Source: a virus
Taxonomy: Duplodnaviria; Caudoviricetes
Length of the DNA: 64,000 bases
Virus record (IMG/VR): IMGVR_UViG_3300027819_000006
Reading direction: 5' to 3' (one strand)
Made by a program: the position numbers and the translations under genes. A model generated the notes under the pieces. That model ran no database searches and had not been told where the DNA came from. It was given only the letters and a program-made list of their open reading frames with translations. Shown piece by piece: positions 10,932 to 61,404 of this stretch (position 1 is its first letter; each line of letters begins with the position of its first letter).

Positions 10932-10953
10932 TATTTATATCTCTCTTAAACGT

Positions 10954-31762: not shown

Positions 31763-32312
31763 TTCGATGTTCTTCTATATATGCTAAACTTATTACAATA
31801 GAATCTGTCACGTCTGCTGCTTGGTTAATCCACTTGTTTTTGTTTTTATCAAATAGATTTTCCAAATTAAACCTTGCAGTAATTTTTTCAAATGCAAAAT
31901 CTTTAGCTTTTACACCTTTTGGCACTTTTTCATTCAAAGCTAATTTTCTTGCATGCAATACATTTATATGTTCTGGTTTGATACCAAAAATACAATAGCA
32001 CCTGTAAGTTACTAACATGTTGAACTTAGCAAGTGCTATGATTGTACTGATTCTTGATCCTCCGAATACAAATTTGCTCATTATATCTTCTATAGCTATA
32101 TGGTCTATAGAATGCTGCTGTTTCAAATCATTGAAAACTTTATCTACACTATCAATTTTTTCGTATACATCTTTGCATTTTGAAAGATTGATGAAATCAC
32201 ATAGAAGCAAACTTCTGTTTTGATCTAAAATGCTATATCCAATAGTAAGAGTTGAGATGTCAAGACCTAATATCAAACTATTCTCCACACTAAATCCTCT
32301 TCTCCATTCCAA
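31734..32312 (-). CDS. RuvC-like Holliday junction resolvase
   Basis: ILGLDISTLTIG, IAIED, D..DSIVI. Confidence 0.8.
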   Translation of the reverse strand: MEWRRGFSVENSLILGLDISTLTIGYSILDQNRSLLLCDFINLSKCKDVYEKIDSVDKVFNDLKQQHSIDHIAIEDIMSKFVFGGSRISTIIALAKFNMLVTYRCYCIFGIKPEHINVLHARKLALNEKVPKGVKAKDFAFEKITARFNLENLFDKNKNKWINQAADVTDSIVISLAYIEEHRNDRLDQKLS

Positions 32313-32944
32313 ATTCTTACAATTCTATATCCATTTCTTTTTGCTAAATTGTTTTTATATATGTCATTATCAGTTCCGAATGGATAATTATGATAATATT
32401 TTCCATCTACTTCCACCAACATGTTAAAATCTGGTAGATAAAAATCAAATGTTCTTGTTTCTATTCTTTTTTGTTTAACATAGTTAATATTGCTCTCTAT
32501 CAATATAGATTCTACTTTTAATTCTGGTTTAGTGTCACAAAATTTTGCAGGTATTTTTCTATTACCATTTTCATAACTTTTTTTATTTCCTTCTGATATA
32601 TTTTTTTTCCCTTGCTCAGATACTTTTCTACCCTTAGTTTTAATAGACATGTTCTTTTTTTGTTCATCTGTCCATTTATTTCCATAATTAGAATTTTTAT
32701 CTCCAGTTCTAAGTTTAGCTGCTTTTGAAAGTTTCTTTATGCTTTCTTCTGAAAAGGTCCTTCCATAAAAAGAATTTTTATCTCCAGTTCTAAGCTTTAG
32801 AGCTTTGATCTTACCTTCTCTACCACATTCTTTAGAACAATATTTTTTAAATATATTTTCATAACATTTAGCATATTTGCAATATACTATAAATTCTAAA
32901 TTACAATTGGCACATATAAAGCTTTTAGGTATTAATACTCTCAT
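32273..32944 (-). CDS. NUMOD3-repeat + Vsr/DUF559-like endonuclease
   Basis: Repeated KLRTGDKNS, TKPE, FDFYL...VEVDGKYYH, IVRIW. Confidence 0.8.
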   Translation of the reverse strand: MRVLIPKSFICANCNLEFIVYCKYAKCYENIFKKYCSKECGREGKIKALKLRTGDKNSFYGRTFSEESIKKLSKAAKLRTGDKNSNYGNKWTDEQKKNMSIKTKGRKVSEQGKKNISEGNKKSYENGNRKIPAKFCDTKPELKVESILIESNINYVKQKRIETRTFDFYLPDFNMLVEVDGKYYHNYPFGTDNDIYKNNLAKRNGYRIVRIWNGEEDLVWRIV

Positions 32945-39985: not shown

Positions 39986-40942
39986 CTATTGTTTGTTTAA
40001 ACTTCTCAACACAAAATTGGTATATGGATTATGTTTTGAAATCATAATACCTATAAAACTCTTACTAATTTGTTTTTTATATTTCAATTTTGAATAACAT
40101 ATTAATAATTCTACTATATCTTCAATAAATTTATTATCATGATGCTTGAAATCAGGATTATCATTGTAATAACATAAAAATCTATTATACTGTTCAATTT
40201 CTTTTAATTCATCAATCCAAGAAATCATTTTGCTACTTTCAAAATTCATCTTATTTTGAATTGTTGTTTCTACATCATTTATTTGTTGTACTTTTTCAAA
40301 TTCTGTTTCATACAAATGTAAACTATTAACTATATGTGTATATGTTCCAATTTCTATTCCTAATTCTGTAGCAAACATCTCCTGTATCATTGTAAAATTA
40401 AACAAATCATTTGGAAATCCAAAATATATATCATTACTTCTCATGTGAGAAATCATATTAAGTTTATTATTTCTTATAAAAAATTGAAAATCAATTGTAC
40501 ATGGCACATCTTTAGTATTAATGAAATCTATTTGTGGGTCCAAAATAGTCATGACTGCTTGACGTGTGTCAATATCTTTCAATTTATTCAAAACATATTC
40601 AAATTGATCTATATTTCTATTTCTCAATCTTTTTCCATATGCACCATGTAATGTTCTGCCATTATCAGAATATTTTAACATTTTAGAATTATAGAATGTC
40701 AACATTTTTAAATCATCTTGGCCAGACACTATCCACAACCATTCTGCAATAGAAAATGCCATATTCATATTTCTAATTGTGTCATAAAATATTCTATCAT
40801 GTGGATTATTAACTATTATTGTACATGGAGATATTTCTAATGTATTCATCCCTCTTGGAGAAACTTTTTTACCATGTTCAAAAACATTGTCTATTACTTT
40901 TTTATATCCTGTAGATATTCCATCAATTTCAATAATTTTCAT
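39986..40942 (-). CDS. Thymidylate synthase superfamily enzyme of dCMP hydroxymethylase type
   Basis: GAYGKRL, DTRQAV, PCT, MRSNDIYFGFPND (Asp at the ThyA Asn177 position), SLHLYE. Confidence 0.8.
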   Translation of the reverse strand: MKIIEIDGISTGYKKVIDNVFEHGKKVSPRGMNTLEISPCTIIVNNPHDRIFYDTIRNMNMAFSIAEWLWIVSGQDDLKMLTFYNSKMLKYSDNGRTLHGAYGKRLRNRNIDQFEYVLNKLKDIDTRQAVMTILDPQIDFINTKDVPCTIDFQFFIRNNKLNMISHMRSNDIYFGFPNDLFNFTMIQEMFATELGIEIGTYTHIVNSLHLYETEFEKVQQINDVETTIQNKMNFESSKMISWIDELKEIEQYNRFLCYYNDNPDFKHHDNKFIEDIVELLICYSKLKYKKQISKSFIGIMISKHNPYTNFVLRSLNKQ

Positions 40943-42129
40943 ATGTCACTTAAATTTGTTAGAATTTTATCTAATTTATTTATGACGATCTCAGAAGAAT
41001 AATTTGATAAATAGAAATTTTTTACATTTTCTATTGTACAATCATATGGATGATTAACATAATAACATATTTTTTTAACATAAGATTGTATATCTTCACA
41101 CAACCCACTATAATTATCTGGTACCATTTCTTTGTATCCTGAATGATTTGGAAGAATAACTATGTAATTAGATAATATACTTTCTGCTATAGACATAGAC
41201 CAACATCCACCATTATTTGAAAATGTAGATACAGACATGTTGCATTCTTTTAAAACTTTATTGTATTCTTCTCTAGATAAGTTATTTTTAAGAATTATTT
41301 TAATGTGTTTTGTGTCTTTTAATGGTATATCATTTCTAGATGATAATTTACCACTAACATCTGTAAATATTACTTCTATTTTATTTTCTAAAAATTGTTC
41401 TAATTCTATTAAAATGTTTAAAAATTTTTTGAAAGCATCATCATAATACCTCATTGTAGAAATTCTATGATTATATAAAATTTTAATATCTCGATTATAT
41501 CCTGAATTAAAAAGATTTTCTTCATTTATAATTGGTTGAACCGCAAACAATTTATCAAAACAACTTTCATCTTTATTTCTTAACATCAATGGAAAAGTTT
41601 TAATAAATTGTTCTTTAATTTGTAAAATTGCAAATTTAGAATTGCATAGATAAGCATCAGACAACAACAATCCTTCAAGTTGTCTAATAAAATATGGACA
41701 TCTTGCATCTATTTTTGAATATTCATATGTATCTATCCAATGATTATATGCAACTACTTTAATTTTGTCTATTAATTTTTCTTCCAACAACAATGTTTTC
41801 CAGTTATTTACTAATGTGGGATTGTTTTCAAATATAATATCAGGTTGAAATTCTATGATCATGTTTGAATATTTTTCTGAATCCCAATCATATCTAGAAC
41901 TGAATACTCTTTTATTAAAATTTGTCATAATGAATGAAACATTTTCCGCATGAACATACTTACTTCCATGTGGTATCAAAATTAGAAATTTGTATTTGTT
42001 TGGCAAATATTTATTACAACCATTAACTATATTAGTGAAAAAGTTAAAATTAGAATCATTCTCTAAAAGAAACTCATGTGTATCTTTTGATATACAACTA
42101 AGTTGAGGGTTCCACAATATTGTTTTCAT
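40939..42129 (-). CDS. GT-B glycosyltransferase-like protein
   Basis: ILYNHRI, LSREEY...L, W.MSIAE, PNHSGYKEM. Confidence 0.7.
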   Translation of the reverse strand: MKTILWNPQLSCISKDTHEFLLENDSNFNFFTNIVNGCNKYLPNKYKFLILIPHGSKYVHAENVSFIMTNFNKRVFSSRYDWDSEKYSNMIIEFQPDIIFENNPTLVNNWKTLLLEEKLIDKIKVVAYNHWIDTYEYSKIDARCPYFIRQLEGLLLSDAYLCNSKFAILQIKEQFIKTFPLMLRNKDESCFDKLFAVQPIINEENLFNSGYNRDIKILYNHRISTMRYYDDAFKKFLNILIELEQFLENKIEVIFTDVSGKLSSRNDIPLKDTKHIKIILKNNLSREEYNKVLKECNMSVSTFSNNGGCWSMSIAESILSNYIVILPNHSGYKEMVPDNYSGLCEDIQSYVKKICYYVNHPYDCTIENVKNFYLSNYSSEIVINKLDKILTNLSDI

Positions 42130-42653
42130 TTAGATTTGTCAACAATAAATTGCATTATTTGACTTATTTCATCTGATAAACACTCAGAATCAGTATACAA
42201 TTTTATTGTATTACATTTAGTCCAAATATAAAAATCTTTCTTGTACATATCATGCAACAATTTTATGTTGTCTTTATTAACAAATTCATCATCATATTTA
42301 TACTTCATTCTCAAACAAATTATAATAAAAGTATTTAATTCACTAAATTTTTTGTCTACTAATTCTAAAATTTCTTCATTGGTTTCTCTATTAAACACTT
42401 TTGAATAGACATACTCTGACGGAAAAGCTCTATCAAATATTACAGAGGTATTAGTTTGTTTCAAAAAATCTACAATATATGTTTGATCATATATCATAGC
42501 ATCTTTAAAATTAAATTTGTTATCTGTAAACAGTGTTTTTTCTTTAATTTCATCTAAAGATCTTTTGAACACCGGAATGTTTAATATTTCAGACATTCTA
42601 CTTGCAATTGTAGATTTTCCTACTCTGTCTGGACCCTCAAAAATTAATATCAT
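42126..42653 (-). CDS. Deoxynucleoside monophosphate kinase
   Basis: IFEGPDRVGKST, IFDRAFPSEYVY. Confidence 0.85.
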   Translation of the reverse strand: MILIFEGPDRVGKSTIASRMSEILNIPVFKRSLDEIKEKTLFTDNKFNFKDAMIYDQTYIVDFLKQTNTSVIFDRAFPSEYVYSKVFNRETNEEILELVDKKFSELNTFIIICLRMKYKYDDEFVNKDNIKLLHDMYKKDFYIWTKCNTIKLYTDSECLSDEISQIMQFIVDKSK

Positions 42654-42932
42654 CTAAACCTCTAGTTTTGGTACATTAACCATTTCACTTCTAGATTTTG
42701 TTTGATCATAATAATGTCTAATTTCAAAATGAGATTCACTAATATCTTCTATAAATTTTTTTATAGCAATTTCTCTATTACAGTTTCTATTTGATAATAT
42801 TGAAACTTCTTGTTTGTTTTTAAATATTACTGTAGTGTCTATATACTTTATATAACAAATATATTCACCATATGCATATTGTATATTAAATGTTATATCA
42901 TCTCTAGTATCAATAAATTGTTCTATTGTCAT
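42654..42932 (-). CDS. Hypothetical protein
   Basis: Packed ORF. Confidence 0.45.
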   Translation of the reverse strand: MTIEQFIDTRDDITFNIQYAYGEYICYIKYIDTTVIFKNKQEVSILSNRNCNREIAIKKFIEDISESHFEIRHYYDQTKSRSEMVNVPKLEV

Positions 42933-42936
42933 AATT

Positions 42937-43989
42937 TTATAAAAATACCTTTTCAGTTATAGATGAATTTTGAGAAGCTTGTAACCAATCATCATAATTC
43001 CAATTAGCTACATTATATCTATCACACATTTTACAAACACTTTCTTGTGCATTATATACTCTATTTCTAATTTTCTTTGCTCTTTCAGATATCCAAATTT
43101 TATTTATGTCTTCTTGTAATACATTTCCCATTACAATTGATGGATCTCTTATAAATGAACCATTGTCCCGAGCCATTCTACAACAATTTAGAATATCTCC
43201 ATTTGCATCACAAAATATATGAACCCATGGCATTATACAAAGTGGTGGTGTTTTTCTATCCAATAAACTTATAAAACTTTTAATATTAGTTTTATATTTA
43301 GTTTTAACACAAAGTGCTTCATCTACATATTCTTTAACTTTATTCTTATCTATATTATTTACCTGCAACTCTGACCAAGTATGTAATGGATAAAAATTAT
43401 TTTCAATTTCTAATTCTTCATTACACATTGTTAATATATCTTTCATCTCATGTATGTTGACTGTAGATATCGTAGAATTACACCGTATTCTTAAGTTTGG
43501 ATTATATTCATTCTTAAGTTTATTCAACAGTTTAATATTTTCTTTTACAGATTTAAGTGTATTTACTCCTCTAGTAGCTGTATATATTTTTTCAGATGCT
43601 CCATCTATAGATATAGAAATCCAATTAGAATTTATTACGAATTTTTCTGTGTTAAATCTACTACCCCACAAACATGCAGTAAGTGTGCCTGTACCCAATC
43701 CAATATTGTGAGCAGTTTCTAAAAATTCGATAAAATTTTCATGTGCAGGAGGATCTCCGCCTGAAAAAACTACAGTATTTGCAGGATTAAAATTAGCCCA
43801 TTGAATTATGTTTAATACAATATCTTTTGGCAGTTTTACATCAGGCCAATCAGGTTTACGACATCCTATACATCTTTGATAACATTTATTTAGAATATTA
43901 AGTTGTATTGATAGTGGTAGATATGTATTTGTAGATTTTGTTTCTATAGCATTTTTAATATTTTTATAATATGGATACAATTTGTCCAA
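42937..43989 (-). CDS. Radical SAM protein with SPASM/twitch domain
   Basis: CYQRCIGC, FSGGDP, SIDGA, C..PW...GD...CC, MGNV, CKMC. Confidence 0.9.
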   Translation of the reverse strand: MDKLYPYYKNIKNAIETKSTNTYLPLSIQLNILNKCYQRCIGCRKPDWPDVKLPKDIVLNIIQWANFNPANTVVFSGGDPPAHENFIEFLETAHNIGLGTGTLTACLWGSRFNTEKFVINSNWISISIDGASEKIYTATRGVNTLKSVKENIKLLNKLKNEYNPNLRIRCNSTISTVNIHEMKDILTMCNEELEIENNFYPLHTWSELQVNNIDKNKVKEYVDEALCVKTKYKTNIKSFISLLDRKTPPLCIMPWVHIFCDANGDILNCCRMARDNGSFIRDPSIVMGNVLQEDINKIWISERAKKIRNRVYNAQESVCKMCDRYNVANWNYDDWLQASQNSSITEKVFL

Positions 43990-43990
43990 T

Positions 43991-44836
43991 TTATTTCTCC
44001 AGTGTATTGTAAACTTTTTTCATATTTTTACGATACAAATCAATATCATTACCTTGTCTCATTATATATGATGGGTGAAATATTTTTGCAATTCTATAGT
44101 CTTTAAATAAATTACTGTTGCATATTATATCATGTACAAAATTTCCCAAACACACAATAAATTCAGGATTTAGTATATGTAATTCTTTTTGTAAATATTT
44201 TAAACTGTTGTCCAAACGTTCATCTAATATTTTATCTTCAGGAAACACTCCACATTTAAATATATTTGTATACCAATTTTTAGTACCAAATACTAGATTA
44301 GACAATATTCTAAACAATAGACAATTTTTGCCTTGAGTATATACTCTTGTTTTTGTATTGTAATAAGTATTTGACTCATTCGATAATCTAGATTTACTTG
44401 GAGCTTCACCTATAAAAACATACCTTGGATGTAAAAATCCAGATGGCAGTGAAACATCGCCTTTGTCAAATTTTGTGTCAATGTAATATTCTTCATTATA
44501 ATACAGTGACCAAATATTTGTCAAATTTAATATATCATTATCACATGACGTTGGTAATGTAAGAAATGGATAAATGTTAAATTTTGTTATATCACCATTA
44601 TTATATAAAAAACATAAATCATGTTCATTTGTTAAAATTTCTTTATTTTCTAATTTCCAATGACAAAAATTGAATTTTTTAATCAGATAGTCTTCAAATT
44701 TACATAATTTATCTCTACCATTATTTCTTTTAAATTCTAACAATTCTTGTATATTTGTATTTTGTATATCAATAACACTATTAGTTGTTATCAGTTTCAT
44801 TTCTTTGCAACATTTTTTTGTTGTTTTTAGTAACAA
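43991..44836 (-). CDS. Uracil-DNA glycosylase family 4-like protein
   Basis: FIGEAPS, YTNIFKC, LNPEFIVCLG, FHPSY. Confidence 0.75.
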   Translation of the reverse strand: MLLKTTKKCCKEMKLITTNSVIDIQNTNIQELLEFKRNNGRDKLCKFEDYLIKKFNFCHWKLENKEILTNEHDLCFLYNNGDITKFNIYPFLTLPTSCDNDILNLTNIWSLYYNEEYYIDTKFDKGDVSLPSGFLHPRYVFIGEAPSKSRLSNESNTYYNTKTRVYTQGKNCLLFRILSNLVFGTKNWYTNIFKCGVFPEDKILDERLDNSLKYLQKELHILNPEFIVCLGNFVHDIICNSNLFKDYRIAKIFHPSYIMRQGNDIDLYRKNMKKVYNTLEK

Positions 44837-45719
44837 TGTTGAATTGTTTCAATATTGGTATATATAATTTTTTATTACTTCCAGCTGCATAATGTATCAT
44901 TACAGGTGCATTTAACATTTTCTTTTGTATTTTTGAAGTATCTTTTAATTTGGTTAAAATTAATCTTACTTCACCGTTTTCATAAGTAAACTTATTGTTA
45001 TTGTCTTTGATTATTTTTTTAAAATACCAATTCCAAAATTGATCTGCAAAAAAAGATTTTGAAACATAACCATCTTTTTTATATCCATTTTCATATTTGT
45101 AATAGTGTTGTTTAAATATGTTCATTAAAAAATCATTGGCATAAAATTTATTAAGATAGTCAATCATCCTGTCTTCAAACGTATATGTAAATGTTCCTGC
45201 ACCAAGTGTATCTGAGTTATATTCATCAACTGAAATGTCTAATTCAAATATATTTCTATATTCATAAAACTGTTGTGGAATATTGTTTTTATCATATTTA
45301 TTAAACGGTACACGAATAAATGCATTGTCATATTTAAATAATAAAGAAGCATCCTGATATATAACAATATCATCATCTGTCATAACTATCTTGTCTGTCT
45401 TGTCACTGAAGTATATTGGTATCGTAAATTGTGAATTATATCTATAGTAATTAAAAAACAACTTTGCATCTATGTTTAAAGGATTTAATTTACTAATTGC
45501 TTTTGTGTCGATGTCTTTAGAATCATATATACAATAATTATTTTTTATAGAACTACATTTACTATTCATAATCATTTTATCTATTTCTTTTCTTTTGTCC
45601 ACATTTCTAGTATCATTTACAAAATGAAATAACACATTGTTGTCTGTTTCTTTGGGATATTTATATAGTAATAACTCTAACATATCCATATCATTTTGTA
45701 ATATAATTAAATCTTTCAT
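44781..45719 (-). CDS. GT-A glycosyltransferase-like protein
   Basis: IVMTDDDIVI (DxD), DQ motif, IHYA. Confidence 0.55.
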   Translation of the reverse strand: MKDLIILQNDMDMLELLLYKYPKETDNNVLFHFVNDTRNVDKRKEIDKMIMNSKCSSIKNNYCIYDSKDIDTKAISKLNPLNIDAKLFFNYYRYNSQFTIPIYFSDKTDKIVMTDDDIVIYQDASLLFKYDNAFIRVPFNKYDKNNIPQQFYEYRNIFELDISVDEYNSDTLGAGTFTYTFEDRMIDYLNKFYANDFLMNIFKQHYYKYENGYKKDGYVSKSFFADQFWNWYFKKIIKDNNNKFTYENGEVRLILTKLKDTSKIQKKMLNAPVMIHYAAGSNKKLYIPILKQFNIVTKNNKKMLQRNETDNN

Positions 45720-48037
45720 TTGTTTCCGTTTAAAAGATTATCTATGTTCATTATTGAAAAATCAGCTTGATCTTGGGTATATTTCCATGTTTTGAATCCC
45801 AACATTATTTCATTCTTATCATTTTTGTAAAATCTTATTAAATACAATCCATTCAATATCAAATTTTTTATGAATGAATACAATCCTGTAAATATTGGAA
45901 ATGACAATTTTGTATTATTCATATCACTTACTTGAATAAATGCCATATCATTTTTGTTTTTATCTTTCATTTCTCTTTTACTATCTATTTTTACCACTAC
46001 ATATGCTTCCTCATCTTTTGAATTTTGAAATTCTTCAAATTCACATATATTTAAATCTTTAAAAAATGAACATGATGTTTTATGTATTTCATAAAATTCT
46101 ACAATTTTTTTGGCTTGTTTCATCACTTTTACTTCACTTTGTTTGTTTATGAATAAAACATTGCCATACAATTCTTCCTCAAAAATTGATAGTTCATCAT
46201 TAGTGAATTCTTTTACAGCTAAATTATCAGCATCTTTTTCAAATCTATCATGATTTGAAATATATCTTTTTTTTCTTTTTTCATTGTTTTCTGAATAAGA
46301 TGAACCATATAACTCTAATTCATGTATTAATTTATTTCTATTTTCAGTCCCATGTAAAGAATCAAATGCACCAAGTTTAATCAAATTTATGATATTTTTA
46401 TTACCACATTTTAAATTTCTATACAAAAAGTCTCTGAAAGATTTATAATTACCATTTTTTTCTCTATCTTCTATGATAACTGTAGGAGATTTTTCTCCCA
46501 TGCCCTTTATTTTGCTAAATGGTAATCTTATAGAATTTTGTTCAATACTAAATTCTAAAAATGAATTGTTTGTATCCGGTTGTAATATATTAATTTTAGT
46601 ATTTCTTATTTCTTTTACAGCTGTAACAAAATCCTCTTTACCACTATATGATAATGTAGCTGTATAAAATTCAAGCGGATAATGTGTAGCAAGATATGCT
46701 GTTTGATATGAAATCATGGAATAGCTAAAAGAGTGGGCCCGATTGAAAGAGTACCCTGCATGATTCATTATTTTTTTCCACAAATCTTCTGCAACTTCCT
46801 TTTTACATCCATTAACAATTGCATTGCTTACAAATTTATTTTCAAACTCTTTCCATTCTTTGTGAACTTTTTCCATGTCTAAAGACTTGCTTCTTTTAAC
46901 AACAGATTTTCTAAATGCATTTATTTCTGGCCAGGTAAATCCGCCCAATTCTTTACATAAAATCATAAAATCATCTTGAAAACATACAATAGAATATGTT
47001 TCTTTTAAAACTTTTTCTATAATTGGATGTTCATATGCAATCAACTCAGGACTATGTTTTCCTTTTGCATATTCATCCAGCATTCCAGATCTTAATGGAC
47101 CAGGTCTATATAATGCAGCTATAACAGCAATGTCTACAAAACAATCAGGTATTATTTTTTTTGCTAATTTTCTAATACCATTCTCTGTAAATTGAAATAT
47201 GCCACAAAAATTTCCATCTTGAAAAACATGTTTAAAAACTTGTTGATCTTTTATGTCTATATTATTTGGATGAAATCTTTTTACTATTTCTTTGTAGTCA
47301 ATACATTCTTTTTTTGATATTAATCTATATGTATGGTCCAAAACTCTTAATGTACTTAATCCCAACACATCAAATTTTAAAAATCCAAATTCAGACAATG
47401 TTTTAGATGCTACACCTTCAGTATAAGCAGTTTGCATCACTCTTTTACCATCATCTCCAGCAGTAGATTGTAATGGCATTTTTTTATATAAATCATCAGC
47501 AATACATATACCAGCAGCATGTTTACCCAATGATCTATTTTTACCAAACAACACTTTAAATGTTTCTTCAATACCATCAGCAGATTTAACAAAATTAACA
47601 AATGTTGGTGAATATTCTGACAATTCATCAAATCCTATTTTAATCGTAGATTTGTCTTGATCGTTGTTGTCATGATATATTTCAGATAATTCTATAGAAA
47701 TATTTTTTGTAATTTTATTCATTTCTTCAAATGAACGTCCATATATTCTACCAATATCTTTTACTAAGTTTCTATAAGAAAATGTACCATATAAACTTAC
47801 TTGAGCAACATTATCTTCATGATATCTTTGTTTTAGATATGTTTTTATTCTATCTGGATATTCCCAATCCATGTCGATATCTGGAAGTTCTGAATTGTGT
47901 GAAATTATATATGTATTTCCGAGTTGAGATATTTGATATGAATGGACATTTTCAATTTCTAAATCATATACAATTCCATCATAATCTATTTCTTCTATAG
48001 ATGAAACTTTATGAAAATTTACATTTTCAATATCCAA
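45716..48037 (-). CDS. dnaE: DNA polymerase III alpha, C-terminal part, with N-terminal split-intein C-fragment
   Basis: VYDLEIE...ISHN then SELPDIDMD, GKHAAG, KFDVLGL, FQF, ALYRPGP, YSFNRAHS. Confidence 0.95.
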   Translation of the reverse strand: MDIENVNFHKVSSIEEIDYDGIVYDLEIENVHSYQISQLGNTYIISHNSELPDIDMDWEYPDRIKTYLKQRYHEDNVAQVSLYGTFSYRNLVKDIGRIYGRSFEEMNKITKNISIELSEIYHDNNDQDKSTIKIGFDELSEYSPTFVNFVKSADGIEETFKVLFGKNRSLGKHAAGICIADDLYKKMPLQSTAGDDGKRVMQTAYTEGVASKTLSEFGFLKFDVLGLSTLRVLDHTYRLISKKECIDYKEIVKRFHPNNIDIKDQQVFKHVFQDGNFCGIFQFTENGIRKLAKKIIPDCFVDIAVIAALYRPGPLRSGMLDEYAKGKHSPELIAYEHPIIEKVLKETYSIVCFQDDFMILCKELGGFTWPEINAFRKSVVKRSKSLDMEKVHKEWKEFENKFVSNAIVNGCKKEVAEDLWKKIMNHAGYSFNRAHSFSYSMISYQTAYLATHYPLEFYTATLSYSGKEDFVTAVKEIRNTKINILQPDTNNSFLEFSIEQNSIRLPFSKIKGMGEKSPTVIIEDREKNGNYKSFRDFLYRNLKCGNKNIINLIKLGAFDSLHGTENRNKLIHELELYGSSYSENNEKRKKRYISNHDRFEKDADNLAVKEFTNDELSIFEEELYGNVLFINKQSEVKVMKQAKKIVEFYEIHKTSCSFFKDLNICEFEEFQNSKDEEAYVVVKIDSKREMKDKNKNDMAFIQVSDMNNTKLSFPIFTGLYSFIKNLILNGLYLIRFYKNDKNEIMLGFKTWKYTQDQADFSIMNIDNLLNGNK
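47894..48037 (-). other. Split intein C-fragment (48 aa)
   Basis: Block F VYDLEI, block G SHN, +1 Ser. Confidence 0.92.
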
Positions 48038-49138
48038 TTTTCACCTTCTTTGATGTAGACATTATCATTTAAATTTTTCATATGCCATTTATGTTTGTTG
48101 GCACACAAACTATTGCAATATGTTTTTTTCTTAGAATTTTTCGTAACTTTACCAATAAGAAAATATTCATTACATCCAATACATCTTTTATAATATTGTT
48201 TTTCTAAATATTTTATTGAATCTTCATATTTTAATTCTAAATTTGATATTACATTTATTAACTTGGAATTTACAAGTAATTTATAAAAATCATTTTGATA
48301 TATAACTTTCAAATTTTTTATAAAATTATTTTGTATATATTGATATTTTTTTTCTATTTCTTCTGTTTTAAAGCCCTTCAGTTCTATATATTCATCTTCA
48401 TCTATTATATAAAAATCAGGAGTATATGATTTGAATCCAATATCAAAAGTTTTAGGATGAAAAACGTAATTTTTATTAATATAAATAAGATATCTTATAA
48501 AATTTGCTTCAAAACTTGAGTGACACAATTCATTAATATCATCTCTATAACCAATAAATCCTCTTGAATATATTTTTATTTGTCCATTTGATTGAGCTAA
48601 AAATTGACATTTTCTAGAACAAAATCTTTTTTTTGCAGATGTTTTTTTTATCTATCCTTATATTAAATTATTACAAGATATATATTCACATTTTTTTTCT
48701 ATAGTACTTTGTTGTATTTTATTATTTTTGAATGTTTTTTTACACTCTGTGGAACAAAATTTTTCAGCAGCCATGACTCTTTTATTCAGCTTAGATATAT
48801 AATAAGTTATCCCACAATTTTTACAAATTACTTCTAATTTATTATATTCAAATTTTAATTTGTTCAAGATAGTTGTATTTATATCTACAAATGTTTGAAC
48901 AGCATTTAACATAAATATCATTTTTGTATATTATAAATTTATTTTTGCAAACTATACATTCCTTTTCTATTAATATTGCATTTTGTAAATTGATATCTAT
49001 TAAACTTGTATTTCTATAATTTTTAGTACATTCTATTGAACAACAATTAACATTACCAATTGTATCAAATAAACTTTTACAATTTAAGCATTTTTTCTGC
49101 ATTTTTTCACCTGTTTGAAAGATTATATAATATATCAT
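48019..49138 (-). pseudogene. Zn-ribbon-repeat PD-(D/E)xK endonuclease between the dnaE halves, broken into three ORFs
   Basis: CxxC..CSxxC repeats; SSFEANF, YTPDFY, IELKG; disruptions near 48850 and 48650. Confidence 0.7.
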
Positions 49139-49166
49139 TCAAAGCAAAAAAATACAAAAAAAATAT

Positions 49167-49445
49167 TTATTTTTTTACCTCAACTAGATAATCGTTTAAT
49201 GTGATATCACATGCTAATTTGTATTCAATTTTATCTTTATTATATACTAATAATCTATGATTCTTTGTACATATTATAAAATCATCATGATATTTTATCT
49301 TCAAAAGCTTTTCTTTCTTGTTGTATTTAAAAACATTTTTTACTATATCTTCACTATTTATATTTTTTACAATGTCATTCTTAATTACTTTATTAATTTG
49401 TTTTACAGAATCATTCATCATTATTTTTGTAGTTGGTACCAAACA
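49167..49445 (-). other. Split intein N-fragment (92 aa)
   Basis: Block A CLVPTTKI, block B ICTKNHRL, then stop. Confidence 0.92.
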
Positions 49446-50774
49446 TCTACCTGGACTTAGAAATCGTTCAAACATAATATCATATTTAATAGGATCCAAA
49501 GCTATTATATCTAACAAATGAAGCAATAAAGATCCCCCACCTGATCCTCTTCCGGGTCCTGCTAATTGATTCTGTAAACCATATTTATAAATATCATAGA
49601 TTATATAAAAATATGTTCCCAAATTTCTTTCTTGTATTGTACTTATTTCAGTCTTTAATCTATCTACATATACTTTGTTTACATGTAAATTTCTATCTTT
49701 CAAATTTTTTATAGCAACTTTAGTCAAAATTTGCATACATTCTTCTTCAGACAACTCAATATTGTTTTCATCATATACAACAGGTATTTTTAAAGATCTG
49801 TCTAAATGTATTGTGTCTATGATAGTAGATAGTTGGAATGAGTTATCTATGGCTTCTTCTACATTTATCTTGTTTATATCTTTTGAAAATATACTAGCAG
49901 AAGATAGTATTTCTTCTGCACTCTTCAAATAAAGATTTTCACATTTAAATTCATCATTAACAAGTGTTTCATTATCTAATTTTGTTTTTTCTAGTTCTTC
50001 ATCTGTCATATTCATCATTTTATTACCCTCAAGCATCTTAAGTATATCATAAATTTTATGATGCTCTTGTTTAATATAATGAGAATCTGTAGTAACTATA
50101 TAAGGTATTTTTAAAAATTTATTTATTTTCAACAATATCTTGTTGTATGTATCTTGCCATGGTATTTCATTAAATTGTAATTCTAAAAAGTACCTATCTC
50201 CAAATACACTTTTCCACCATTCTACTTCTTTCACAACATTATTTATATTTATATTTTTGCCATCTGTAGAAGCAATTCTACTAATTGGTCCTGCAATACA
50301 AGAGCTTGTAGTTATTATACCTTCATTGTATTTTTCTAGTAATTTTTTGTCTATTCTTGGTTTTCTATAAAATCCATATTTATGTGATAAAAAATTGAGT
50401 TGAAATATATTTTCCAACCCAACATTATTTTGTGCCAATAATACTACATGTGCATAACTATTTACCTTTTTTCTTCTACCTTTTAATTCTTCTTTGCTTA
50501 AAGTTTCTTTTAATTCATCTAATTCTTTTCTATCATTTGCATTTTTTTCCAAATCATTTACTAAATATGCTTCAATACCAAAAATGTGTTTAGTTACAAA
50601 ATTGTTCTTTTCTGCAGCTGTATAAAAATCAGCTATACCATTAAGATTACCATGATCTGTTAGTGCAATTGCATCTATATTTTTATCAATAGCAGTTTTT
50701 ATAATTTCTGCAGGTTTTGCAAGTCCGTCCTGAATACTTGCATCTGAATGATTGTGAATAGATGCATATTTCAT
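49167..50774 (-). CDS. dnaE: DNA polymerase III alpha, N-terminal (PHP) part, ending in split-intein N-fragment
   Basis: IHNHSD, LTDHG, TTDSHY, GRGSGGGS, FERFLSPGR then CLVPTT...CTKNH. Confidence 0.95.
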   Translation of the reverse strand: MKYASIHNHSDASIQDGLAKPAEIIKTAIDKNIDAIALTDHGNLNGIADFYTAAEKNNFVTKHIFGIEAYLVNDLEKNANDRKELDELKETLSKEELKGRRKKVNSYAHVVLLAQNNVGLENIFQLNFLSHKYGFYRKPRIDKKLLEKYNEGIITTSSCIAGPISRIASTDGKNININNVVKEVEWWKSVFGDRYFLELQFNEIPWQDTYNKILLKINKFLKIPYIVTTDSHYIKQEHHKIYDILKMLEGNKMMNMTDEELEKTKLDNETLVNDEFKCENLYLKSAEEILSSASIFSKDINKINVEEAIDNSFQLSTIIDTIHLDRSLKIPVVYDENNIELSEEECMQILTKVAIKNLKDRNLHVNKVYVDRLKTEISTIQERNLGTYFYIIYDIYKYGLQNQLAGPGRGSGGGSLLLHLLDIIALDPIKYDIMFERFLSPGRCLVPTTKIMMNDSVKQINKVIKNDIVKNINSEDIVKNVFKYNKKEKLLKIKYHDDFIICTKNHRLLVYNKDKIEYKLACDITLNDYLVEVKK

Positions 50775-50786
50775 GATAAACCTTTC

Positions 50787-51152
50787 TTAATATTTTTCAT
50801 CAACTCTCTTGTTATTTTTATCATTTTTACTTATATACAAATTAGTAATTTTATCTGCATCAATATTAGACAATATTAACAATTCTAAAAATAGATGTAG
50901 TGCATCAACTAATTCTTCTTCATATTCTTCTCTATTAAAATCTTTTATTTCAGATACTCTATTTGGTCTATTTTTTAAATGATATATTGCTTCAAATAAT
51001 TCTTGTGTAATATGAAAAACACATTCTCTTACAGTCTTTACATCATTTTTTACAGATAAATCTAGTGGAAATTGTGGAAGAAATCCAAGATTTACATATC
51101 TTTTCATTAATTTTGTTTGTAGATTAAACAACATGTCTAATTTGTCACTCAT
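50787..51152 (-). CDS. MazG/dimeric dUTPase-dCTPase-like nucleotide pyrophosphatase
   Basis: QELFEA, EEELVDALHLFL, N..R.. Confidence 0.8.
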   Translation of the reverse strand: MSDKLDMLFNLQTKLMKRYVNLGFLPQFPLDLSVKNDVKTVRECVFHITQELFEAIYHLKNRPNRVSEIKDFNREEYEEELVDALHLFLELLILSNIDADKITNLYISKNDKNNKRVDEKY

Positions 51153-51155
51153 CTA

Positions 51156-51647
51156 TCATATCTCCAGTTTAACTGTTTCAACATTATATTGTTTTAAAAA
51201 ATCTAACCCCTCTGTTAAACGGTATTCTTCTAAATATTTAAATATTTTAATTCCAGATGCTACCAATAATCTTGCACACGATATACAGGGAGTCATAGTA
51301 CAATAAATTGTTGAACCAAAAACAGAAACTCCTTGCATGTTAGAATATGATATTGCATTTTGTTCAGCATGTATTGCACGTAAACAACTATTTTGACTAT
51401 CTTTACCACATATGCTTTCACCATTCTCTAATTCTATACAATTTATATCACCAGAAACAGGACCATTTATTCCTAAAGATATAATCCTATTGTTTTTTAC
51501 TATCAAAGCAGCCTGTTTAGTTTTTGCACAACTAGATCTATAGGATACTATTTTAACTATAGATGAAAATATGTCATCCCATGATGCTCTAGATTTTTCA
51601 TATTTTTTATCTAGTTGTTCAAATAAAAATTTGTTATCAAATAACAT
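51156..51647 (-). CDS. dCMP deaminase
   Basis: IHAEQNAI, PCISCA. Confidence 0.92.
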   Translation of the reverse strand: MLFDNKFLFEQLDKKYEKSRASWDDIFSSIVKIVSYRSSCAKTKQAALIVKNNRIISLGINGPVSGDINCIELENGESICGKDSQNSCLRAIHAEQNAISYSNMQGVSVFGSTIYCTMTPCISCARLLVASGIKIFKYLEEYRLTEGLDFLKQYNVETVKLEI

Positions 51648-52625: not shown

Positions 52626-53360
52626 ACATCATCACATATTCATGTTTGAAAAGTAAAGTTCCCCAAGCTAAAGACCTGTATGTTCTTAACGGTTCATTTT
52701 TACTATTTTGTGTTTCTCCAAAATCTTTCACAGCTACAAACGTACATTTATATCCATTATTCTCTATTATATCTGCTAGTTTACTTGATAATCTATACCA
52801 AGAAGACTTGTAATAAACATCGCCGATAACTAAACATATTAAAGATTCTGCATCTGTAAAAATGTTTATATTTTGTATAACAGAAGAAAATTTAACTAAA
52901 AAATCTTCAACAGAATAATTACTTAAATCTAATTCATCTTCAGAAAATTTTATAATATTTGTATATGGAGGATGTAACATCACTAAAGATGGTTTTATAA
53001 TATTTTTTCATGCATCATTTTTACTTCAGCTATATTAGATATGTCACATTTAATTATAGAGTCTCGAGTTGGATTCAAATCTGAAGATATGCATTTTCTG
53101 TTTAGTTTTTTACAAACATCTATAGTTGTTCCAGATCCAGCAAATGGATCAAATACTGTATCTCCTTCTTTTGTAAATCTTATCACTGCTTGCTTAACTA
53201 TGTCGGGATGGAAATTACCATGAAATTTATTATCTCCACAATTGTCTCTATCTACAAATTTTCCAATCCATATAGATGAAATCCAGATAATATTATCTTT
53301 AATTTGTTTCCAATTATTTTTAATATCAGCAGAAGTTTTCTTATGATATTTTGTTAACAT
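52612..53360 (-). CDS. N4/N6 DNA methyltransferase, one gene split by a frameshift near 52990
   Basis: VFDPFAGSGTT in the first ORF and HPPY in the second; one extra A in an A6 run joins them. Confidence 0.82.
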
Positions 53361-53367
53361 TTTTTAT

Positions 53368-53799
53368 TTATTCTAACCCTAGTTCATGTCTTGTTTTAAT
53401 CAGATCAATCCTTTTCAGCTTATTTTCTTCTGACAAATCTTCATATCTACTCTCATTAATGTCAAAATTCTTAACATCAAAAAGTGTTCTGCTGTCATTC
53501 ATGCATACTATTAGATACTCATCGTTATCAGTTTTGTAGTGCAGACAAAGACCTCCTATTCCATTCTCATCATGCGATGGAAATATTTTTTTAAAACAAG
53601 AAAATTCTATTTTTTCCATTAATACTAAACAATTGCTTATAGCAATTCTATTTGGATGTTCAAAATCGCCATCCCAAGTTTCTTTAAAGTTATTGTATAG
53701 AGCTTCTACTCTTTCTTCATGAGATAAATCATCAGTATTCAGTGTGAGATTGTCTTTGTTTATCACTTTATTCTCTCTATGAACATTTTGAATAGCCAC
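53368..53799 (-). CDS. Hypothetical protein
   Basis: ORF track. Confidence 0.45.
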   Translation of the reverse strand: MAIQNVHRENKVINKDNLTLNTDDLSHEERVEALYNNFKETWDGDFEHPNRIAISNCLVLMEKIEFSCFKKIFPSHDENGIGGLCLHYKTDNDEYLIVCMNDSRTLFDVKNFDINESRYEDLSEENKLKRIDLIKTRHELGLE

Positions 53800-60550: not shown

Positions 60551-61404
60551 TTATATTATTCTCCATTCTTTATGAATTTCATTATCCCAAATACGTATCA
60601 ATTTATATCCATACTTTTTTGCTAACTGGTTTTTATATTCATCATTTTTCATTATTTCTTGCCACATCTTAGGTCTACATTCTTCATATCTAGCATGCCA
60701 ACAACAACCATCTAATTCAATCAATGTATTATAATCAATTAAAAATCATAACATTTATTTTCTAATCTATATTGCTGTTTGAAATTTATGTTCATACTTT
60801 TTAATATTTCTTTAACTTCTAGTTCTGGCTTAGATATCGATACATTATGGTGAGTAGATAAATAATTCAATCTAGCATCTGACATTTTAAGCTTAGATGC
60901 TTCAGAATGTGCTCTTCCATAAGCAGCTGATAATTCACCAGTTAGGCCATACTGCGAATGATTTTCTCCTCTCAGATGATCATTACAGTACTGATCCCAT
61001 ACTTTAACTCCTTCAACTTCTCCGAATGTTTTAAATATAAAAGATTTTTGACTGTGATGTTTACTTCCTTTCTTCATATTAGCTTTATGCTCTTCAGTTT
61101 TCTCCTTTCCTTTCATTGAAAGACTGATTTTATTTCTAGAAAAATCAGAAGTTATTTCAGCTAATTCAAATTTTGTTAAATATTCAGCTGTTGTCATATT
61201 ATGTTTATCTAACAAGTGTTGAGCATTTACTCTTCTGAATTTTTCATGACATATTAAGCATTCGACAGTTCTTTCTATATCATTTATTTTATTTTCTGCT
61301 TTTATTTCAGCTTGACAATCTTTACATATTCCACATTTATTTGTTACTCCTAATGGTTTAATTTTACATACAGAGCATCTTTCATTATTCTTAAATCCTC
61401 TCAT
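60551..61404 (-). CDS. NUMOD-type + Vsr/DUF559-like endonuclease, frameshifted at about 60741
   Basis: SKPE...YDF, then in the shifted frame LIELDGCCWH...LIRIWD to stop at 60551. Confidence 0.75.

Follow-up and report, generated by a model that had tools for sequence, protein, structure and literature searches.

What does a large phage make with a thymidylate synthase (ThyA) homolog, a kinase, two glycosyltransferases, a radical SAM enzyme and a UDG-like protein, all encoded in one operon beside its DNA polymerase? The question arises from a window of 64,000 nucleotides, the whole stretch of DNA analyzed here, which belongs to the 272-kb genome of a large uncultured groundwater phage. The DNA of the operon is known solely from Illumina-derived contigs of groundwater metagenomes. 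We consider it probable that the operon is a cytosine-hypermodification module, in which T4-type pre-replicative synthesis of 5-hydroxymethylcytosine (hmC) is combined with post-replicative glycosylation and a radical tailoring step.

Organization of the operon

Seven translationally coupled genes are located on the minus strand, 3' of a split dnaE gene. Their order after dnaE is GT8-like GT-A, family-4-UDG-like protein, radical SAM enzyme, 92-aa ORF, dNMP-kinase-like P-loop protein, GT4-like GT-B and ThyA homolog. A preliminary description had placed tightly coupled genes directly downstream of dnaE, and all seven ORFs were found at the coordinates given there, with junctions that overlap by 4-20 nt or are separated by gaps of 0-4 nt. 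Its family calls (ThyA, GT-B, dNMP kinase, radical SAM/SPASM, UDG4-like and GT-A) were likewise upheld by profile searches and structure models. The operon and its neighbors are as follows.

39986..40942, minus strand: ThyA-family enzyme, predicted dCMP hydroxymethylase (5-hm-dCMP synthase); Pfam Thymidylat_synt, phrog_5131
40939..42129, minus strand: GT-B fold, GT4-like glycosyltransferase, candidate hmC-DNA glycosyltransferase; AF2 and Foldseek
42126..42653, minus strand: P-loop kinase, putatively dNMP-kinase-like; AAA_28, phrog_761, PDB YorR and dGK
42654..42932, minus strand: 92-aa ORF without family match
42937..43989, minus strand: radical SAM enzyme with twitch/partial-SPASM auxiliary-cluster domain; Radical_SAM and SPASM
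43991..44800 (ORF to 44836), minus strand: UDG-superfamily protein; Pfam UDG
44781..45719, minus strand: GT-A fold, GT8-like glycosyltransferase with DDD motif; ESM-Atlas model
45716..50774, minus strand: split DnaE polymerase (N half 49167-50774, C half 45716-48037); alignment to sister-locus DnaE
50787..51152, minus strand: all-alpha NTP pyrophosphatase (dUTPase_2/MazG-like), candidate dCTPase/dUTPase; PF08761, phrog_12184
51156..51647, minus strand: dCMP deaminase; PF00383

The split DnaE is the replication context of the operon. Both halves align to the unsplit DnaE genes of the sister loci L001 and L006, and between them there are small ORFs and an endonuclease-like ORF. The 92-aa ORF had no family match in profile searches, and its homolog is present in L006/L018 only (34% identity). 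A GGAG is placed 7 nt 5' of the TTG start of the radical SAM gene.

A ThyA homolog with the signature of dCMP hydroxymethylases

The ThyA homolog (Thymidylat_synt, E 8.6e-29; phrog_5131, E 3e-74) includes RSNDIYFGFPND. Diagnostic residue rules have been published with experiments (PMC13326640), and the protein bears the dCMP-hydroxymethylase signature described there, 143 D, 146 C, 169 D and 177 D. In E. coli numbering the protein has D at 143, C at 146, T at 147, M at 165, D at 169 and D at 177, and T4 gp42 is identical at all these positions, whereas the dUMP hydroxymethylases of SPO1 and SP10 differ by 147N, 165N and 177N. The earlier claim that Asp in place of ThyA Asn177 marks a cytosine-specific hydroxymethylase therefore holds, and more strongly than it was made, as positions 143, 147, 165, 169 and 177 all match T4 gp42. 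The enzyme is thus predicted to be a dCMP hydroxymethylase of the gp42 pattern, not of the dUMP pattern. This signature is common to all ThyA homologs of the module, and direct inspection of L026 and L027 showed it there as well.

A related route leads to glycosylated 5-hydroxycytosine in phages RB69, DLP3 and RL38J1, through a ThyA-homolog 5hodCMP synthase, a dNMP kinase and DNA arabinosyl- or hexosyltransferases (PMC13326640). Common to this route and the module are N177D and L143D/E in ThyA, a cognate dNMP kinase and, besides several DNA glycosyltransferases, NDP-sugar genes of the phage, but neither a radical SAM enzyme nor a UDG is reported for that pathway (PMC13326640). In addition, the D169N substitution that marks 5-hydroxy-dCMP synthases is missing from the ThyA homolog, and every member of the module retains Asp169, so that the predicted handle is CH2OH and not OH. 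Over its length, the ThyA homolog resembles the SPO1/phage G clade (37-46% identity) more than gp42 (23%).

Kinase and nucleotide metabolism

T-even phages make glucosylated hmC with the T4 gp42 dCMP hydroxymethylase, the gp1 dNMP kinase, the gp56 dCTPase, the cd dCMP deaminase and alpha- and beta-glucosyltransferases. The operon and its surroundings are like this pathway in the gp42-type active-site signature of ThyA, a kinase, a gp56-like pyrophosphatase, a dCMP deaminase and GT-B glycosyltransferases. This supports the initial reading of glycosylated hmC synthesis and the expectation that such phages pair the hydroxymethylase with a kinase, a dCTPase and sugar transferases, here two in number. 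There are also differences from T4: the kinase is YorR/TMPK-like and not gp1-like, the main glycosyltransferase is GT4-like, the polymerase is DnaE, and a twitch radical SAM enzyme and a UDG-like protein are added.

The pyrophosphatase (PF08761, E 2.6e-6; phrog_12184, E 1e-16) is 30% identical to T4 gp56 over the last 64 aa of the latter (pairwise E 3e-7), and the dCMP deaminase matches PF00383 (E 1.7e-15). Both genes adjoin the polymerase upstream of dnaE, across from the operon, where a MazG/dUTPase-like gene and a dCMP deaminase had been noted before. The kinase matches AAA_28 (E 7e-7) and phrog_761, 'thymidylate kinase' (E 2.5e-13), and its family profile finds YorR (1.8e-6) and deoxyguanosine kinase in the PDB. 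The motifs GxxGxGK and DRxxPSE are invariant in the family. These similarities are weak, and the protein is called dNMP-kinase-like in a putative sense. It is found at the radical SAM loci throughout, except in the P0007 context, where the kinase was not identified.

Glycosyltransferases and sugar genes

The GT-B protein matched Pfam Glycos_transf_1 below the threshold only. Its AF2 model (pLDDT 82.7, pTM 0.85) has as top Foldseek matches in the PDB MshA, BshA (GT4), glycogen synthase and PglA (E about 1e-14, TM 0.65-0.7), and matches in BFVD phage glycosyltransferases, including those of SP-15 and RL2RES and a 'DNA alpha-glucosyltransferase'. Orthologs occur in five other loci (39-46% identity). 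For the GT-A protein no sequence match was found in Pfam, PHROG, NCBIfam or PDB; its ESM-Atlas model aligns to Glyco_transf_8 clusters with TM 0.57-0.63, and the DDD motif is kept in both orthologs, in L006 (62%) and L024 (27%).

In the lineages examined the module is always adjoined by a glycosyltransferase, either GT4-like or T4 beta-GT-like, the latter in L026. Some modules carry inserted sugar or phosphonate genes: UGDH and an epimerase in L004, aminoethylphosphonate genes in L001 and a UDP-galactopyranose mutase in L026, which may be compared with the NDP-sugar mutase inferred for RL38J1 (PMC13326640).

The radical SAM enzyme

The radical SAM enzyme (Radical_SAM, E 3.5e-11; SPASM, E 2.4e-11) belongs to a family with invariant C36x3C40x2C43, SGGDP and auxiliary cysteines C251, C269, C270, C319 and C322. 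The auxiliary pattern, C...Gx4C...Cx2C, is like that of one-cluster twitch enzymes. The best solved match of the AF2 model (pLDDT 88) is BlsE (7vob; Z 25.8, rmsd 3.2, 299 of 327 residues aligned, 15% identity), followed by DesII (Z 23.5), SkfB (Z 23.1) and CteB (Z 22.1). BlsE is a cytosylglucuronate decarboxylase, and like DesII it acts on a nucleoside or nucleotide sugar. With these as the closest solved relatives, the likely substrate is the base-proximal sugar or its NDP donor, or the hydroxymethyl-cytosine nucleotide. However, the lead of BlsE and DesII over the RiPP maturases SkfB and CteB is small and the identity to BlsE is low, so the type of chemistry is not fixed by these matches. 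In addition, glycosyltransferase type and sugar genes change by lineage while the radical SAM enzyme is constant, which argues against a role bound to one sugar.

The match to BlsE suggests another product, a cytosyl-pyranoside small molecule like mildiomycin or blasticidin, with no modified DNA base at all. ThyA would have the role of MilA, the UDG-like protein would stand for MilB as the N-glycosidase that frees the base, a glycosyltransferase for MilC (linking the base to glucuronate) and the radical SAM enzyme for the decarboxylase BlsE/MilG. The four enzyme roles do map onto the Mil/Bls pathways (PMC3715490; MilA residues, PMC13326640), and L004 has a UGDH. MilG, moreover, acts on hydroxymethyl-cytosylglucuronic acid, a sugar conjugate of 5-hydroxymethylcytosine downstream of a ThyA-family hydroxymethylase (PMC13326640, PMC3715490). 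We nevertheless hold this reading to be extremely improbable. BlsE is an enzyme of an antibiotic cluster and its sequence match is limited to the radical SAM core (E about 1e-7), whereas the module is always within a replication and nucleotide-metabolism block, beside a polymerase, a dNMP-type kinase, a dCTPase-like enzyme and a dCMP deaminase. The UDG domain has the fold of a DNA enzyme and not every module has one, peptidyl-tailoring genes are absent, and ribosome-targeting nucleosides would also hit phage translation. The linkage differs too, the sugar of CGA being N1-linked and that of the operon presumably O-linked at C5-CH2OH.

The only radical SAM enzyme demonstrated to date to introduce a modification into DNA is found in the thymidine hypermodification system of the phages M6 (Pseudomonas) and ViI (Salmonella), which uses a dUMP hydroxymethylase, 5-HMUDK, aGPT-Pplase and the radical SAM protein gp53 (PMC8989533). 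A pathway of the M6/ViI/PhiW-14 type moved to cytosine would share the ThyA-family hydroxymethylase followed by post-replicative tailoring, with hmC as the base that enters the DNA. The kinase would phosphorylate 5-CH2OH in DNA as 5-HMUDK does, the UDG-like protein would flip the base and substitute the phosphate (the role of the HhH-fold aGPT-Pplase), and the radical SAM enzyme would remodel the group as gp53 does. The players do correspond, namely a ThyA homolog, a P-loop kinase, a protein of DNA-glycosylase fold and a radical SAM enzyme, and the aminotransferase and phosphonate genes of L001 could supply the appended group. We consider this route quite improbable, since the kinase has a DRxxPSE/TMPK-dNK-like motif and its best PDB matches, YorR and deoxyguanosine kinase, are nucleotide or nucleoside kinases, and none of the seven operon proteins matches a helix-hairpin-helix glycosylase-type or aGPT-Pplase-type family. 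The predicted target of the operon is cytosine, not uracil, and its radical SAM enzyme is twitch/SPASM and BlsE/DesII-like, while gp53 is SPL-like and SPL is only the 41st structural match (Z 10.3). Furthermore, no module lacks a glycosyltransferase, in keeping with a free hydroxyl that becomes O-glycosylated, and several lineages do without the UDG-like gene.

The UDG-like protein

The UDG-like protein matches Pfam UDG (E 2.7e-12), and its family profile matches the S. tokodaii UDG 4zbx (E 1.4e-10). The ORF spans 43991-44836, but translation probably begins at the ATG at 44800, for a product of 269 aa, the length of the database gene call. An N-terminal domain of ~115 aa precedes a family-4-like UDG domain without the Fe-S cysteines; no Cys quartet is conserved across the five aligned orthologs. 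Conservation in all five extends to GEAP(G/S), the stacking Tyr and the TN and HPS motifs, within which GEAP, T-N and H-P are invariant. All family-4 pocket residues are retained and the base-recognition residue is Asn (uracil-type), not Asp/Glu.

Brig1, which excises alpha-glucosyl-hmC, shows that a UDG-fold enzyme can accommodate this base (PMC11078745). The S. tokodaii family-4 UDG, reported as the closest structure for Brig1 (PMC11078745), is also the match of the C-terminal domain of the operon protein, which retains the stacking aromatic residue and the HPS motif. However, Brig1 is a host defense protein that reads the base with Glu147, where the phage protein has Asn, and the latter has the extra N-terminal domain and no Fe-S cysteines.

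The UDG-like gene accompanies about two thirds of the module lineages. It is missing beside the module in 4 of ~12 (L003, L020, L027 and the P0007 context), one of which is a 2-kb contig. Fusion of UDG domains to phage polymerases is common, as in viral DnaE-UDG and PolA-UDG clusters, so this protein may belong to replication and not to modification. The pathway might then be a plain T4-like one to glucosyl-hmC, with the UDG-like protein (a replisome uracil/hmU glycosylase) and the radical SAM enzyme (repair, cofactor or metabolite chemistry) as unrelated passengers. The uracil-type Asn, the full catalytic motif set, the modules without the gene, its position immediately 3' of the polymerase in L001, L021 and the P0005 context, and the mixed functions usual in phage early operons would agree with this. 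We regard it as rather unlikely: UDG and radical SAM genes are adjacent, often with an 8-nt overlap, in the window as in L004, L007 and the highly divergent L024, and the distribution of the radical SAM gene speaks against a passenger.

Recurrence of the module

ThyA (Asp177), kinase and radical SAM enzyme occur together in about 12 independent metagenomic phage lineages of DnaE or PolB type, and because the same set recurs in this way the gene combination is not due to chance. The loci are L001, L003, L004, L006, L007, L026, L027 and the P0005 context; the P0007 context has radical SAM and ThyA genes. The radical SAM gene adjoins kinase and ThyA (ThyA in P0007) in every ThyA-bearing lineage examined, whichever of the two unrelated polymerases is present and at identities as low as about 30%, and its family is otherwise missing from 50,697 GenBank phages. 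No relative of the GT-B, kinase or UDG-like protein was found among these records either. The first impression that the combination matches no characterized pathway agrees with literature searches, which found none.

Proposed pathway

Most likely, cytosine in the phage DNA is replaced by sugar-decorated 5-hydroxymethylcytosine. The ThyA homolog would convert dCMP to 5-hydroxymethyl-dCMP. By analogy with T4, the adjacent dNMP-kinase-like protein would make the diphosphate and host NDP kinase the triphosphate, while the gp56-like pyrophosphatase and the dCMP deaminase would drain dCTP, so that the phage DnaE would insert hmC for C. After replication, the GT4-like GT-B may add a sugar to 5-CH2OH, which the GT8-like GT-A may extend; the folds are those of the models, and hmC is the putative acceptor.

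The radical step by the twitch enzyme, which T-even phages do not have, is the least certain. It could act on the base-proximal sugar or its NDP donor (decarboxylation, dehydration or oxidation), or on the hydroxymethyl-cytosine nucleotide, e.g. by oxidation of CH2OH. A radical SAM enzyme of this kind is used by no known DNA-modification pathway, and the final base is therefore probably not yet described. The UDG-like protein may present the modified pyrimidine as a base-flipping partner, or may serve as a uracil/hmU glycosylase linked to replication.

Gene organization of the operon

The minus strand of the window carries all genes from 39.3 to 51.7 kb, among them the seven genes of the operon, which follow a split dnaE and adjoin one another with overlaps of 4-20 nt or spacings of 0-4 nt. 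The radical SAM (rSAM) gene starts at a TTG codon, with GGAG 7 nt ahead, within the 3' end of the UDG-like gene. The preliminary description had reported tightly coupled genes for a thymidylate synthase (ThyA) family enzyme, a GT-B glycosyltransferase (GT), a kinase, a radical SAM protein, a UDG-like protein and a GT-A directly downstream of dnaE; its account of the sequence is borne out by the gene order, strand, coordinates and tight junctions. A scan for promoters and terminators gave nothing better than shuffled sequence. Groundwater or sediment metagenome contigs (Illumina-based assemblies) are the sole sequencing-run sources of this DNA, and no RNA dataset is among the runs containing the stretch.

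Genes of the operon and of its upstream neighbourhood: coordinates in the window, strand, product and basis of assignment
51156-51647, minus, dCMP deaminase (PF00383, E 1.7e-15)
50787-51152, minus, all-alpha NTP pyrophosphatase (PF08761, phrog_12184)
49167-50774 and 45716-48037, minus, DnaE in two halves with small ORFs in between
44781-45719, minus, 312-aa protein, GT8-like GT-A candidate (ESM-Atlas model match, DDD motif)
43991-44800/44836, minus, UDG-like protein (family-4 UDG match)
42937-43989, minus, radical SAM/SPASM protein (PF04055, E 3.5e-11)
42654-42932, minus, 92-aa ORF
42126-42653, minus, P-loop kinase, 175 aa (AAA_28, phrog_761)
40939-42129, minus, 396-aa protein, GT-B (AlphaFold model, GT4-like matches)
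39986-40942, minus, ThyA-family protein, 318 aa (Thymidylat_synt, phrog_5131)

A predicted dCMP hydroxymethylase

The ThyA homolog matches Pfam Thymidylat_synt (E 8.6e-29) and phrog_5131 (E 3e-74), and its closest relatives in cultured phages are gp319 of Bacillus phage G (46%) and the experimentally established dUMP hydroxymethylases of SP10 and SPO1 (37-39%). It was aligned with five orthologues and with E. coli ThyA, T4 gp42, SPO1 gp29, the SP10 enzyme and phage G gp319, and the columns diagnostic for substrate and product were read, in E. coli ThyA numbering, by the rules of a 2026 study (PMC13326640). According to these rules, N177D denotes a dCMP substrate, L143D/E a hydroxymethyl and not a methyl product, and D169N is the mark of the newly discovered flavin-dependent 5-hydroxy-dCMP synthases. 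The catalytic Cys146 is found in the window protein and in all five aligned orthologues. Asp177 is present in the window and in the metagenomic loci L001, L003, L004, L006 and L007, as in T4 gp42, while the dUMP hydroxymethylases of SPO1 and SP10 and E. coli ThyA have Asn177. Every aligned ThyA homolog of the module (the recurring set of ThyA(Asp177), kinase and rSAM genes) has an acidic residue, Asp143, in place of Leu143, and all of them keep Asp169. The module enzymes also share T147 and M165 with T4 gp42, whereas Asn occupies 147, 165 and 177 in the dUMP enzymes. The same signature residues, including Asp177, occur in the more distant orthologues of loci L026 and L027.

From this pattern at positions 143, 146, 147, 165, 169 and 177 we predict that the ThyA homolog is a dCMP hydroxymethylase. 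A 5-hydroxy-dCMP synthase of the RB69 gp48 / DLP3 gp80 type is ruled out by the retention of Asp169, Asn169 being absent, and residues 143, 147, 165 and 177 rule out an ordinary thymidylate synthase or a dUMP hydroxymethylase.

In phage G (L010:1311-7047, JN638751), gp319 is annotated as a thymidylate synthase, yet it has D at 143, T at 147, M at 165, D at 169 and D at 177. Its neighbours include gp313, an 'alpha glucosyl transferase', the dCMP deaminase gp317 and a DnaE-like polymerase. Given this dCMP hydroxymethylase signature and these neighbours, phage G may contain glucosyl-hmC (hmC, 5-hydroxymethylcytosine) in its DNA.

Conservation of the module among phage lineages

The genomic context of twelve lineages was examined and their proteins were compared by BLAST. 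ThyA(Asp177), kinase and rSAM genes occur together in every lineage with enough DNA visible, both in phages with DnaE (the window, the P0005 context, L006, L001, L026 and L027) and in phages with PolB (L003, L004 and L007). The module is compact, with four to seven genes in about a dozen lineages. A GT adjoins it in every lineage; its type varies and is mostly GT4-like. In L026 (10274-12451) the GT4-like GT-B is replaced by a 351-aa GT that has weak similarity to T4 beta-glucosyltransferase (24% over 134 aa), and the 298-aa GT of the L027 module is weakly similar to that of L026. Eight of the 12 lineages have the UDG-like gene, often with an 8-nt overlap with the rSAM gene, and it is missing in L003, L020, L027 and the P0007 context.

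The accessory genes inserted in the module differ between lineages. The PolB-type locus L004 (6792-8674 and 16477-19003) has a UDP-glucose dehydrogenase (UGDH), an NDP-sugar epimerase/dehydratase and three more GTs (Caps_synth, GT7C-like and GT10-like), suggesting an oligosaccharide on the base. The L026 module (10274-12451) carries a UDP-galactopyranose mutase. Between the UDG-like and rSAM genes of L001 (3461-9918), L002 and L021 there is a complete-looking 2-aminoethylphosphonate set, composed of PEP mutase, TPP decarboxylase, class-V aminotransferase, methyltransferase and a 604-aa NTP-transferase/phosphodiesterase fusion, which hints at a phosphonate-decorated DNA base in modules of the L001 type. 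The variation of these inserts from one sister phage to the next (phosphonate genes, UDP-Galf mutase and UGDH) points to a set of bases that are related but not identical.

L024/L025 (1453-7466), on a virus-like contig binned with a 'Promethearchaeota' MAG, is related only very distantly, its rSAM being 25% identical. Next to DnaE it has GT-A, UDG, rSAM, N6/N4 methyltransferase, GT-B and kinase genes, and its UDG has Fe-S cysteines and a QNPG motif. The 14.4 kb of L024/L025 show no ThyA homolog. A U32 'peptidase' gene overlaps the GT-A gene by 4 nt and is translationally coupled to it; the best NCBIfam match of the protein, a weak one (E 5e-10), is TrhP, a prephenate-dependent tRNA U34 hydroxylase. 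The U32 protein could catalyze an oxygen-independent hydroxylation of a DNA pyrimidine.

Close homologues of the rSAM number 13 in a collection of 5.8 billion proteins, none from isolated organisms, although one contig comes from an NCBI assembly, and a profile search of 1.84 billion representatives returned 185 clusters at E <1e-30. Blastn of the operon for cultured-phage relatives gave only short ThyA matches, and when 50,697 phage records were searched by tblastn with the GT-B, rSAM, kinase and UDG-like proteins, matches were marginal or absent. In IMG/VR, a single-protein query found nothing and a profile query only the L007 contig, and a metagenome scan added only L018, L020 and L021. The literature search found no paper on a ThyA-rSAM(SPASM)-GT module or on a phage rSAM with ThyA, hmC or UDG.

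The radical SAM enzyme

The rSAM protein matches PF04055 with E 3.5e-11. In 14 homologues the motifs C36-x3-C40-x2-C43 and S76-G77-G78-(D/E)-P80 are kept, with variation at the D/E position, and there are five further conserved Cys (C251...G264x4C269(C270) and C319x2C322). The CX5CX3C part of the seven-Cys SPASM motif (CX9-15GX4C...CX2CX5CX3C...C) is missing from these 14 homologues. The pattern presumably corresponds to a one-cluster, twitch-like domain as in BtrN, and the twitch family NF033640 matches residues 250-324. Distant homologues that are fusion proteins carry extra domains that were uninformative.

A model of the rSAM (pLDDT 88) was aligned against about 48,000 PDB representatives. 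The top match was BlsE (Z 25.8, rmsd 3.2, 299 residues, 15% identity), followed by DesII (Z 23.5), an enzyme with a TDP-sugar substrate, next by SkfB and CteB, which are RiPP maturases, and then by PqqE, MoaA, anSME and viperin; Foldseek returned the same set. BlsE is the cytosylglucuronate decarboxylase of blasticidin S and MilG its mildiomycin counterpart, their substrate being a sugar conjugate of cytosine or 5-hydroxymethylcytosine (PMC3715490). The mildiomycin conjugate stems from the product of MilA, a CMP hydroxymethylase of the ThyA family (PMC3715490, PMC13326640). This parallel is suggestive. However, BlsE leads unrelated rSAMs by only 2-3 Z units at 15% identity, and its sequence-profile match (E 9e-8) is limited to the core; because of the small margin and the low identity, we treat BlsE/MilG as a lead and not as an assignment.

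M6 gp53, a relative of spore photoproduct lyase (SPL), is the one rSAM known so far to introduce a modification into DNA (PMC8989533). An SPL-like enzyme of this type is ruled out, as SPL ranks 41 among the structural matches (Z 10.3), and the TIGR03916-type 'DNA modification/repair rSAM' is absent from the NCBIfam matches.

Kinase, glycosyltransferases and UDG-like protein

The kinase gave weak matches that agree with one another: AAA_28, phrog_761 ('thymidylate kinase') and, from its profile to the PDB, SPbeta YorR and deoxyguanosine kinase. The P-loop is invariant and a DRxxPSE motif resembles that of thymidylate kinases; no relationship to T4 gp1 was detectable. We infer that it may be the dNMP kinase required for modified dCMP. 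The 92-aa ORF was considered as a RiPP-like substrate and rejected, since it has a homologue in one sister phage only and nothing speaks in favour of such a role.

An AlphaFold model of the 396-aa protein, built from six orthologues, has a GT-B fold (pLDDT 82.7, pTM 0.85). It has at least 500 PDB matches with E <1e-3, of which the best 50 are almost all of the GT4 type, and the best solved ones are the GT4 enzymes MshA, BshA, PglA and glycogen synthase (E ~1e-14, TM 0.65-0.7). Phage GTs are matched among viral models, for example from Bacillus phage SP-15 and Rhizobium phage RL2RES, as is a 'DNA alpha-glucosyltransferase'. Position 316 is acidic throughout (Asp in two members, otherwise Glu), and Glu334 is conserved as well. 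The score against Pfam Glycos_transf_1 is 17.8 bits, under the 26.4 cut-off. For the 312-aa protein, searches of Pfam, PHROG, NCBIfam and PDB gave no sequence-family match, while the ESM-Atlas model of the exact sequence (pLDDT 0.62) has TM 0.57-0.63 to GT8-family GT-A clusters. Its DDD motif is kept in a 62% identical orthologue (L006) and in one of 27% (L024).

The C-terminal 150 residues of the UDG-like protein correspond to a family-4 UDG, and the family profile matches the Sulfolobus tokodaii enzyme (4zbx, E 1.4e-10). Its NCBIfam scores, 32 and 29 bits, are far under the cut-offs of 125 and 250. Motif A reads GEAPS in the window protein and GEAPG in its relatives, motif B, H-P-(S/A), is conserved, and all five aligned orthologues keep the aromatic residue at the stacking position and the base-reading Thr-Asn. 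In these five orthologues the Fe-S Cys quartet of family-4 UDGs is lacking: there is no CxxC, and the sole invariant Cys is C229 in a CLG motif. The orthologues also share an N-terminal domain, conserved and about 115 residues long. The S. tokodaii UDG, an archaeal enzyme, is likewise the nearest structure to Brig1. This glycosylase of bacterial defence removes alpha-glucosyl-hmC and reads the base with Glu, not Asn (PMC11078745); the window protein, in contrast, retains the Asn. The UDG-like protein may be a helper that flips the base, or else a uracil/hmU glycosylase linked to replication. The latter is favoured by the retained Asn and by the recurrent fusion of UDG domains to phage DnaE and PolA polymerases (Atlas); in favour of the former, its gene is coupled to that of the rSAM again and again, L024 included.

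Proposed pathway

Phage DNA hypermodifications determine how restriction, CRISPR and glycosylase-based defence turn out, and they are a source of new DNA chemistry and of enzymes for biotechnology. To our knowledge, the known cytosine routes begin with hmC (T-even phages), 5-hydroxyC (RB69) or TET oxidation, and proceed by direct group transfer. The hmC part of the pathway proposed here is well supported by sequence and by analogy with the T-even phages: as in these, a hydroxymethylase and a kinase would act together with dCTP removal, and glycosylation would follow after replication. The NTP pyrophosphatase at 50787-51152 shares 30% identity with the C-terminal part of T4 gp56. Thymidine hypermodification by a 5-HMUDK and an aGPT-Pplase is ruled out by the cytosine signature of the ThyA homolog, the resemblance of the kinase to nucleotide kinases and the lack of a match of any operon protein to an HhH glycosylase or aGPT-Pplase family. 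The M6/ViI-type system has a dUMP-specific hydroxymethylase, a 5-hmU DNA kinase and an HhH-fold aGPT-Pplase.

The rSAM is much more likely to be part of the modification pathway than a passenger, because its linkage to hydroxymethylase and kinase is invariable, the enzymes closest to it in structure are nucleoside- or nucleotide-binding, and the sugar genes around it are variable. It may tailor the sugar, on DNA or as the NDP-sugar donor, in a manner like BlsE or DesII; the UGDH of L004 fits a glucuronate that is decarboxylated later. Alternatively, it may act on the hydroxymethyl-cytosine nucleotide or the base itself, an option that we do not rank below the first, because GTs and sugars vary while the rSAM is constant and usually beside the kinase.

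There is a realistic chance that the module, a variant of the known hmC-type pre-replicative pathway, yields a new DNA base. To a broader reading we give slightly less than an even chance: the hydroxymethylase, kinase and twitch rSAM would form a new class of cytosine hypermodification, in which hmC or a sugar attached to it is remodelled by the radical enzyme and then elaborated by lineage-specific GTs, furanose or uronic sugars and, in one lineage, 2-aminoethylphosphonate. The products would be undescribed bases, possibly phosphonate-bearing, and in the distant relative the U32 protein of the TrhP/RlhA hydroxylase family may replace the ThyA homolog as the source of the hydroxyl, independently of oxygen. 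If true, a conserved rSAM step in an hmC pathway would be a new reaction type in DNA modification, and the enzyme would be the first of the SPASM/twitch type in DNA base modification and only the second rSAM, from a different subfamily, in DNA modification as a whole.

Other features of the region

In the split DnaE (window 45716-50774), the approximately 1.1 kb between the ORFs contains Cys-rich small ORFs and a 169-aa endonuclease-like ORF. DnaE is unsplit in sister phages (P0005 context, 1182 aa; L001; L006), and that of L006 seems to bear an insertion. A 310-aa ORF of L001, similar to the homing-endonuclease-like ORF at 21529-22428 of the window, is flanked by two pieces, possibly the halves of the decarboxylase gene. 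In the window, a 121-aa ORF (52995-53360) matches N6/N4 DNA methyltransferases in their C-terminal part only (profile positions 129-215 of 221); it may represent a fragment or one part of a split gene. The large subunit of a ribonucleotide reductase (53777-56677, 966 aa) has a TSCPD domain at its C-terminus. Mobile-element-like genes are abundant in the window; one more is the NUMOD3 and Vsr/DUF559-type endonuclease ORF at 32273-32944, which has a weak paralogue at 60739-61404.
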